From positions 45,446,001-45,510,000 of the forward strand of contig OZ024746.1 in NCBI GenBank assembly GCA_964016885.1: a stretch of DNA of 64,000 nucleotides, read 5' to 3'. Source of the DNA: Eledone cirrhosa. Lineage: Eukaryota. A model generated the notes under the pieces. That model was not told the origin of the DNA and ran no database searches. It worked only from the letters and a program-made list of their open reading frames with translations. Of the stretch, positions 57,791 to 59,255 are shown piece after piece; the first letter of the stretch is position 1, and each line of letters begins with the position of its first letter. Made by a program: the position numbers and the translations under genes.

Positions 57791-59170
57791 ATGGGTAGAA
57801 ATAACAAAATTACCATGGTGATATCCATCGATGAAATATGCGACAAAACCGGCCGATGTCCCAAGATAGAACATTGCCCAGAAGATCACATCTGCCATAT
57901 CTGTGCGGAACCCGAAAACTCGTTCCGTAATCGCTGGGTCGAATGTGGAACCTGTCGCATCTCTGTCTGCCTTCAATGCGCCACAGGCTTCCGGAGGATC
58001 CCAGGCCAAAAAAAGAGACATCATAATGCTATGATGGATGGAATATGGGAGATGGTCCAGCTAAAATCCTGGTCCTTTCAGTGTCTGGCCTGTGTGCCTG
58101 CCTCCACGAATGTTATTGATGTTATTGAAAAACAACAACAACAACAAAAACCAATGACTGTGTCTTCCTCTACCATTGTTACTGAACAACGGCAAAAACC
58201 TATGACACTGGCTTCTACTGTTATTCCTGTGGGAGAACATCAGAAACAACAACAACCCATGTCTTCCACTCCCAGTACATTTCGACACCAACAACTGGTG
58301 ACTGTGTCTTCCCCTACCATTCCCGTGGAGGAACATCATCATCACCAACAACAACAACAGCAACAACCTGCGACTGTGTCCTCCCCTGCCATTCCCTTGG
58401 AGGAACATCATCATCACCAACAACAACAACAACAACAGCAACAACCTGCGACTGTGTCCTCCCCTGCCATTCCCGTGGAGGAACATCATCATCACCAACA
58501 ACGACAGCAGCAGCAGCAACAACAACAACAACAACAACCGACCAGTACAGATTTTGCGGAACTGCAACTAATGATTTCTGCTCTGAGAAGGGAAGTTGCA
58601 GGAATAGAGGCAAGCATTCGGGTAGGACCCCACAATGAGGGGTCTTATCGGAATGCCTTGCTAAAGAATCTCCCTGTACCTCTTGCTGGAAAGACTGAAA
58701 AGACTGCGGAATCTGCTACCCATGAAGTGATTGCCATTGGGGTACCAGAGGACAAGGCCGATCTTCAGGCATTTGCTGCCAGCTCGGCCAAAGACCTAGG
58801 CTGTGTTCCCCCAAAGGGTGCCCTCTGCCTTGGTCGACCTGGTCCAAAACCCAGACTCATCAGGCTGTCTTTCTCGGACCCCGCAGAGGCAACCTCATAT
58901 CATCTGGCCTCTGCTAAAGCTGGGCGTGAAAATCGGATTACCTTCCGAACACGCCCAGGCCTACCACCCCATGTACGTCCAAAACTACGTGCTGCAGCTT
59001 CCTTGAATCGGAACTCAGCACAAGATGAAAGTTTCAGTCTGCGTGATGATGGGCAGATCTGGAGGTTTGTCAAGGCTGGTGAAACGTGGAAGAGAGATAC
59101 CAGCTGGTCTGAGTGTGATCTACCCACAATAACTGGCAATGTAAAAACTGCTACAACTCTGGGAAACTAA
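57791..59170 (+). CDS. LINE ORF1p: N-terminal PHD-like Cys finger, Q/H-rich repeats, coiled coil, L1-like RNA-binding region
   Basis: CHIC..CGTC..CLQC..CLAC; (PATVSSPAIPxEEHHHHQn)x3; LGRPGPKPRLIRLSF. First ATG at 57791. Confidence 0.85.
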   Translation: MGRNNKITMVISIDEICDKTGRCPKIEHCPEDHICHICAEPENSFRNRWVECGTCRISVCLQCATGFRRIPGQKKRHHNAMMDGIWEMVQLKSWSFQCLACVPASTNVIDVIEKQQQQQKPMTVSSSTIVTEQRQKPMTLASTVIPVGEHQKQQQPMSSTPSTFRHQQLVTVSSPTIPVEEHHHHQQQQQQQPATVSSPAIPLEEHHHHQQQQQQQQQPATVSSPAIPVEEHHHHQQRQQQQQQQQQQQPTSTDFAELQLMISALRREVAGIEASIRVGPHNEGSYRNALLKNLPVPLAGKTEKTAESATHEVIAIGVPEDKADLQAFAASSAKDLGCVPPKGALCLGRPGPKPRLIRLSFSDPAEATSYHLASAKAGRENRITFRTRPGLPPHVRPKLRAAASLNRNSAQDESFSLRDDGQIWRFVKAGETWKRDTSWSECDLPTITGNVKTATTLGN

Positions 59171-59255
59171 ACCAGAACAACCTGCCACCCTCTACACACC
59201 ATCATAAACTGCGAGCAGGGTTCAAATTGTTGTCCTTAAATGCTCGCAGTTTATG
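59161..59255 (+). promoter_or_regulatory. Putative -1 programmed ribosomal frameshift signal (slippery heptamer + pseudoknot)
   Basis: G_GGA_AAC (59161-59167) in ORF1 phase immediately before TAA. Stem 1 59175-59185 / 59215-59223; stem 2 59203-59214 / 59244-59255. Confidence 0.72.

Follow-up and report, generated by a model that had tools for sequence, protein, structure and literature searches.

The window, a stretch of 64,000 nt, carries a LINE copy whose ORF2 overlaps ORF1 in the -1 frame and has no AUG ahead of its first endonuclease motifs, which raises the question of how ORF2 is translated. We propose that -1 frameshifting at the heptamer G_GGA_AAC would yield an ORF1-ORF2 fusion of ~1,400 aa and, based on comparative sequence evidence, give this reading a probability of about 0.75.

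The element and its two reading frames

We delimited a near full-length LINE copy of subfamily A at positions 57411..62270 of the plus strand. Both ends are approximate: the 5' limit is the point from which sister copies align, and 10 subfamily A copies share a common 3' end with an (ATT)n tail at ~62250-62270. No target-site duplication was seen around the copy. A junction search of its own 3.0-Gb genome yielded a total of 1,343 candidates, the best 40 of which were scored and were all 99-100% identical; judged on these sequences, the LINE family (subfamily A) is young and abundant. Using diverged queries, we recovered a sister subfamily B with 83% identity to A across a colinear 1,230 nt. 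Searches for a third subfamily in the same genome using P0001, part of P0003, P0123, P0146 and three patterns returned A, B or nothing among the top-scored candidates. About 28 same-strand copies with an intact 957-aa ORF2 were found at G000:C28:124.7-126.4 Mb with a spacing of roughly 30-40 kb, an arrangement which suggests that the LINE is part of a large tandem array or segmental repeat. Comparison of copies resolved the 3' UTR (61993..62270, plus strand) into a duplicated terminal unit, a small stem-loop and the (ATT)n tail. The terminal unit (stem-loop and ATT-repeat end) is duplicated in 10/10 A copies and single in the nine B copies read, and copies of both subfamilies end in the (ATT)n short-repeat tail rather than in poly(A). 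The element likely belongs to the CR1 group.

ORF1 (57791..59170, plus strand) encodes 459 aa from the first ATG and comprises, in order, a Cys/His-rich PHD-like N-terminus, Gln/His-rich repeats, an RRM-CTD-like C-terminal half and a variable tail ending in Gly-Asn-stop. A profile of its relatives matched PHD fingers weakly at the N-terminus (E-value 1e-3; Pfam PHD in 3/41), and the model of the C-terminal half (pLDDT 90) had the RRM-CTD of human L1 ORF1p as best match (E-value 1.2e-3, TM 0.4). From these weak PHD and fold matches, the predicted architecture would be compatible with type IIC among the ORF1 proteins of CR1/L2 lineages, described as a PHD followed by a transposase-22-like RRM-CTD in CR1 subgroup 5 and L2 subgroup 6 (PMC4120745). 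The Gln/His-rich repeats are encoded at 58285-58540 by three tandem units of ~75 nt, which do not appear in the alignments of subfamily B and vary from one A copy to another.

ORF2 (59161..61992, plus strand) was delimited by its domains and open frame and encodes an N-terminal APE endonuclease and a reverse transcriptase (PF03372, PF14529 and PF00078). As the original prediction had stated, it occupies the -1 frame relative to ORF1 and stays open to 61992, the full open frame spanning 59119-61992 and 957 aa. Its claim that ORF2 has no ATG until ~59419 also held: the earliest in-frame ATG is at 59419, inside the endonuclease and past its NARSL and TETW motifs.

The shift site in the genome and in relatives

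ORF1 ends in CTG GGA AAC TAA (59159-59170). The slippery heptamer G_GGA_AAC predicted at this end of ORF1 lies at 59161..59167 (plus strand) with its X_XXY_YYZ pattern in ORF1 phase, and the stop codon TAA (59168..59170), a possible stimulator, adjoins it on the 3' side. From the layout, the phase, the missing AUG and the conservation of the site, all directly seen, we infer the slip, the fusion and the protein ratio. A minority of ribosomes, carrying tRNA-Gly and tRNA-Asn at GGA AAC, would re-pair one base back, bypass the TAA and read CTA AAC CAG and onwards. The predicted product is an ORF1-endonuclease-RT fusion of ~1,400 aa with the joint ...TTLGN|LNQNN..., in which the AUG-less ORF2 would form the C-terminal part. 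The remaining ribosomes, which would be most of them, would terminate and leave ORF1p in excess.

To assess the conservation of the site, we collected 121 distinct junction stretches from subfamilies A and B (a number that does not exactly equal copy numbers), and set aside nine that were out of register for the stem counts given below. Heptamer and stop were intact in 117/121 stretches. At the DNA level, they lie within a conserved block (59155..59187, plus strand) in which A and B differ at 1 of 33 nt; the mean is 5.7 per 33-nt window, and the two flanks have 15/45 and 12/36 differences (33% divergence). Only 9 of the 1,197 overlapping windows, falling in three places, were as conserved as this block, two endonuclease stretches being equally conserved. 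Variants listed for eight sequencing runs, away from contig ends, include none between 59154 and 59187. No RNA run was among the sequencing runs listed as containing the sequence, which says nothing about its expression. Where codons are known (A, B and the distant loci L255 and L222 described below), the conservation of the shift site exceeds protein constraint.

Two B copies (L085/L174 at G000:C4:367.25 Mb and L164 at G000:C3:19.22 Mb) have ORF1 and ORF2 fused in one frame of 1,381 aa, and the fusing indels lie in the A-run immediately upstream of the heptamer. We ruled out a single-ORF form of the family, as only 2/109 matches were fused.

We then searched the C-terminal half of ORF1 against 1.84 billion protein representatives and obtained 47 relatives, of which 40 with a domain end and a tail were kept; the other seven were excluded as being fragmentary or lacking the closing motif. 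A G-N dipeptide was present in the tail of 31/40 relatives (5.0 in shuffles, with a maximum of 14 in 10,000), G-N or K-N in 36/40 (7.6 in shuffles, maximum 18) and [G/K/E]-N in 40/40 (12.7 in shuffles, maximum 24), the E-N class having been added post hoc, once the data had been seen. These relatives are divergent (median pairwise identity 38%, with 5/820 pairs above 60%) and non-independent, sharing ancestry throughout. The dipeptide lies 3-33 residues past the domain and 0-18 codons (median 2) ahead of the stop, in a tail predicted to be disordered (pLDDT under 50). In 32/32 sequences, including that of the window, the residue preceding G-N has a codon that can end in G; the Asn never varies, and S-G-N is the most frequent form (17/32). 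We regard this protein signature as the strongest evidence for the shift site, with the codons of the 40 relatives inferred from protein and DNA carrying the site seen for two distant families only. Scans for the relatives' DNA returned nothing from viral contigs, a first scan of prokaryote bins and plasmids, and distant families only from metagenomes.

These two distant families came from an endonuclease-only scan of genome bins, which yielded 43 LINE-bearing contigs (L222-L264), 27 of which were examined. The contigs carry eukaryotic LINE endonucleases in bacterial and archaeal genome bins and are most likely host or environmental contamination. In 4/27 loci the ORFs overlap in -1 and in one (L252) in +1; the remainder are gapped or without an upstream ORF, besides seven loci interrupted by TGA. 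At L255, ORF1 ends in ..QGN* with an in-phase G_GGA_AAC, and ORF2 lies in -1 without a Met. At L222, ORF1 has S-K-N with an in-phase A_AAA_AAC, and ORF2 overlaps it by 52 nt in -1, again without a Met. The other two -1 loci (L235 and L237) have no strict in-phase heptamer. In an endonuclease tree of unnamed relatives, from which three loci were dropped for stops, L222 was placed close to the group of the window's element, though weakly supported (89/26), and L255 was a long branch outside it.

In the seven TGA loci, representing six families, ORF1 and ORF2 are in frame across a single TGA that is followed by C in 7/7 cases (L225:353-358, L226:1230-1235, L231:338-343, L232:1701-1706, L234:1355-1360, L236:1228-1233 and L243:1475-1480). 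The context variants are CAA, CTA and CTC, and the TGA lies 18-120 nt ahead of the endonuclease start. Inspection by eye showed no in-frame Met ahead of the endonuclease in L231, L232, L236 and L243. UGA-C is described as a leaky stop context (PMC3542737), and these junctions suggest candidate programmed stop-codon readthrough as a parallel route to a fusion; they point to selection for fusion via a second route. The same TGA-C arrangement was observed at L238 and L242, without a long upstream ORF.

The metagenome scan found 37 loci, 18 of which were examined; the upstream ORF overlaps in -1 in 12/18 and in +1 in 0/18. Seven of them (L036-L042) have an in-phase heptamer ~200 nt ahead of the endonuclease, with weak structure and, in five, an in-frame Met upstream of the endonuclease, so that their evidence is ambiguous. 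At L036-L039, an in-phase A_AAA_AAC stands at the start of a -1 overlap of 136-184 nt, within the conserved ORF1 C-terminal domain. Counting against our reading, the called start of P0005, a related ORF2, is a Met located 27 aa ahead of NARS.

Downstream RNA structure and other routes to ORF2

We folded the 93 nt after the heptamer and obtained z = -5.2 against shuffles in the window copy, and only -1.0 to -2.2 in subfamily B. Among 27 control windows in ORF2, one reached z -5.9. A perfect 10-bp hairpin lies within ORF2 at 60456-60480, its 95-nt window (z -5.9) matching the junction hairpin by z-score. For both A and B, the energy minimum is a plain stem-loop, long and irregular, at 59203..59255 (plus strand), 35 nt past the heptamer, with -27.0 kcal/mol in the window copy and -29.3 in the common A form. 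Its 9-bp core (59203-11/59247-55) is common to A and B and is their strongest shared short-range helix; within it, the subfamilies differ by one A-U to G-C change (compensatory) and one G-C to G-U change (wobble). The form with 15 perfect base pairs is found in subfamily A only. The hairpin is weaker in older B copies, 6/57 B stretches having U.C at the covarying pair, and copies of another organism (run X10) carry the changes C59209A (79% of depth) and G59213A within it. Covariation scores over five A/B rows were no better than those of shuffles (57-63 of 500). Loose contig ends from other organisms' sequencing runs are short, and the 5' hairpin arm appears different in them, which gives a hint of further families in those organisms.

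Ribosomes could alternatively terminate at the TAA (59168) and begin ORF2 anew from a near-cognate CUG (59182..59184, or the second CUG at 59209-11), aided by this hairpin and yielding a free ORF2p. The two CUGs, which are in frame, occur in A as well as in B, and the conserved hairpin begins 21 nt past the first one, so that it sits downstream of a CUG rather than of the heptamer. There are precedents, SART1 using a downstream structure and L1 restarting unconventionally (PMC5972666, PMC2881922), and the missing AUG does not force frameshifting, because human L1 ORF2 is described as tolerating loss of its AUG (PMC1965478). However, such a restart would leave unexplained the G/K/E-Asn of 40/40 tails as well as the heptamers of L255 and L222, and in run X10 the CUG at 59209 is altered at 79% of depth. 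The UAAUG of SART1-type coupling is also missing: the stop is followed by ACC, and no ORF2-frame AUG occurs before 59419. We consider reinitiation improbable, while ranking it first among the explanations that compete with frameshifting.

The original prediction had frameshifting driven by an H-type pseudoknot, a sub-case of our main reading. The 15-nt complementarity on which it relied is exact (59203-17 is the reverse complement of 59241-55), and the window copy can form nine pairs of stem 1 and 12 of stem 2 with a 7-nt spacer, although the two stems as drawn cannot both be completed because 59215-17 serves both. Comparison of copies did not support stem 1 (5' arm 59175..59185, partner 59215-59223). 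Its lower part requires T59222, which is private to the window copy (A in 29/29 other copies), and the stem is lost in B without a compensatory change. Nine of nine pairs form in 1/55 A stretches, the window's own, against eight of nine in the other 54 and five to seven of nine in all 57 B stretches, that is, a complete stem in 1/112 in-register stretches. Overall, stem 1 is 73% paired, with no compensatory pair among the A and B rows. A crude estimate of the pseudoknot energy gave -21.0 kcal/mol in the window copy, -16.5 in the common A form and about 0 in B, the nested hairpin being lower by 6-13 kcal/mol in A. Aligning genomic copies thus upheld the heptamer and went against stem 1, which showed no covariation, and we judge this pseudoknot quite unlikely to be the stimulator. 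The frameshift itself was strengthened by the two subfamilies, the clade-wide signature and the DNA of two distant families; what fell was its proposed pseudoknot trigger.

In both subfamilies, the best H-type candidate is instead a weak stem of seven pairs with a 6-nt spacer (5' arm 59174..59181, partner 59229-59236), whose predicted stability is below that of the nested hairpin. It is invariant in A and B, hence without covariation, and this invariance is no evidence in its favor; we regard a stimulatory role for it as doubtful, if less so than for the pseudoknot first drawn. In neither A nor B was a stable structure found 5-9 nt past the heptamer, the pairing probability at +5..+20 averaging 0.27-0.31. 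A BYDV-like, long-distance contact between the sequence that follows the shift site and the 3' end of the element reached about -10 kcal/mol and is unsupported, given an element-wide median of -7.9 kcal/mol and internal windows down to -23.8. A search of Rfam gave no family at gathering score and two chance-level matches, and in a simple pseudoknot search of L255 and L222, 34 and 58 of 100 shuffles, respectively, were equally good.

Our best guess for the stimulator of the frameshift would be the adjacent stop acting with a downstream structure, namely the hairpin at 59203-59255, perhaps refolding so that 59174-81 pairs with 59229-36. A stop near the heptamer is described as a stimulator in pea enation mosaic virus. 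Alternatively, a protein might bind the 20 conserved nt that follow the site; for protein-stimulated frameshifts, spacers of 11-14 nt are described, a distance that the 35 nt to the hairpin exceeds. We tentatively propose, at somewhat less than even odds, that the fusion would keep the enzyme tethered to the RNP of ORF1p and would fix the ratio of the two proteins. Its trigger would be non-canonical, either the stop next to the heptamer together with a hairpin that is distant or refolds, or ORF1p itself.

The Gly-Asn could also be a terminal protein motif of ORF1p, with the heptamer and the -1 overlap as by-products and ORF2 translated either through internal initiation or from an RNA that is shorter or spliced. 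The invariance of the Asn and the frequency of S-G-N (17/32) agree with this, codons being inferred for most relatives, and IRES-type initiation has been proposed for LINEs (PMC3894237). Yet the motif has no fixed place in its disordered tail, lying 3-33 residues past the domain, and alternates between G, K and E, and slippery codons are used in all four cases with DNA (A, B, L255 and L222), making this explanation very unlikely. Finally, we give hardly any weight to a frame change at the nucleic-acid level, by polymerase or reverse-transcriptase slippage in A-runs with rare fused copies as active masters: 2/109 matches do have one 1,381-aa frame via A-run indels, but these fused copies are single and their indels differ, whereas the two-frame layout multiplied in both subfamilies.

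Comparison with known systems

Because the family is young and has many copies, its conserved shift site would allow a direct test of a fixed, low-ratio ORF1-ORF2 fusion, unlike the reinitiation of L1 and SART1. If frameshifting is true, many elements would have ORF2 starts wrongly annotated at internal AUGs (here within the endonuclease), the endonuclease would be accompanied by ORF1 domains such as the PHD finger, and LINE-based gene-writing constructs of this group would require an intact junction. The floating G/K/E-Asn signature would further make shift sites detectable from protein databases alone.

LINE ORF2 initiation is described as an open question (PMC3894237, PMC2881922), and frameshifting is not among the options given in the available text of PMC3894237. 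Our literature search found no description of -1 frameshifting in CR1-group LINEs, and an overlap may already be mentioned in Repbase or in papers of the 1990s on chicken and turtle CR1. The words "frameshift" and "overlap" are absent from the available text of PMC4120745 and of a 2026 survey of the vertebrate CR1 group (PMC13343379). CR1/L2 LINEs of type IIC resemble this LINE in their ORF2 with APE and RT, in their short-repeat tail and, judging from the weak matches above, in a PHD-like N-terminus and an L1-ORF1p-like fold.

The original prediction had seen no precedent among well-studied LINEs, which stands for the CR1 group and does not extend to TRE5-A and TRE3-A, APE-type non-LTR elements of Dictyostelium for which a -1 frameshift is stated to be necessary for ORF2 (PMC5911963). 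That statement gives neither a heptamer nor a stimulator. These elements differ from this LINE in their host group, in the C-terminal zinc finger of ORF2 and in targeting tRNA genes. HeT-A is the sole frameshifting non-LTR element named in the available text of PMC5009743. In the Drosophila R1B lineage, ORFs are described as overlapping by 14-59 bp in -1 (PMC2718515), and for Paramecium non-LTR elements of groups 1-3, +1 frameshifting, reinitiation or readthrough has been suggested (PMC5405496); both belong to other clades, and the available texts report no slippery site or mechanism for them.

L1 and SART1 are described as making ORF2 by reinitiation (PMC2881922, PMC5972666), L1 with a 63-nt spacer and SART1 with UAAUG coupling. 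They share with this LINE a bicistronic RNA and the dependence of ORF2 on ORF1 translation, and SART1 also a downstream structure. In contrast, this LINE has no UAAUG, spacer or AUG, its ORFs overlap, and its predicted product is a fusion rather than a free ORF2p.

The canonical -1 signal of retroviruses, LTR elements and RNA viruses is described as an X_XXY_YYZ heptamer, a spacer of 5-9 nt and a 3' structure (PMC3542737, PMC5009743). This LINE differs from the elements that carry such signals in being a non-LTR element without a protease, in having its conserved hairpin at 35 nt, with no conserved structure found at 5-9 nt, and in having its stop codon directly adjoining the heptamer. Like them, it has an in-phase heptamer, among the shiftiest known, a polymerase ORF that lies in -1 and lacks a start of its own and, as predicted here, a structural protein in excess. 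Judged by the sequence features of such signals, all seen here apart from a conserved structure at 5-9 nt, the junction likely acts like a viral -1 site.
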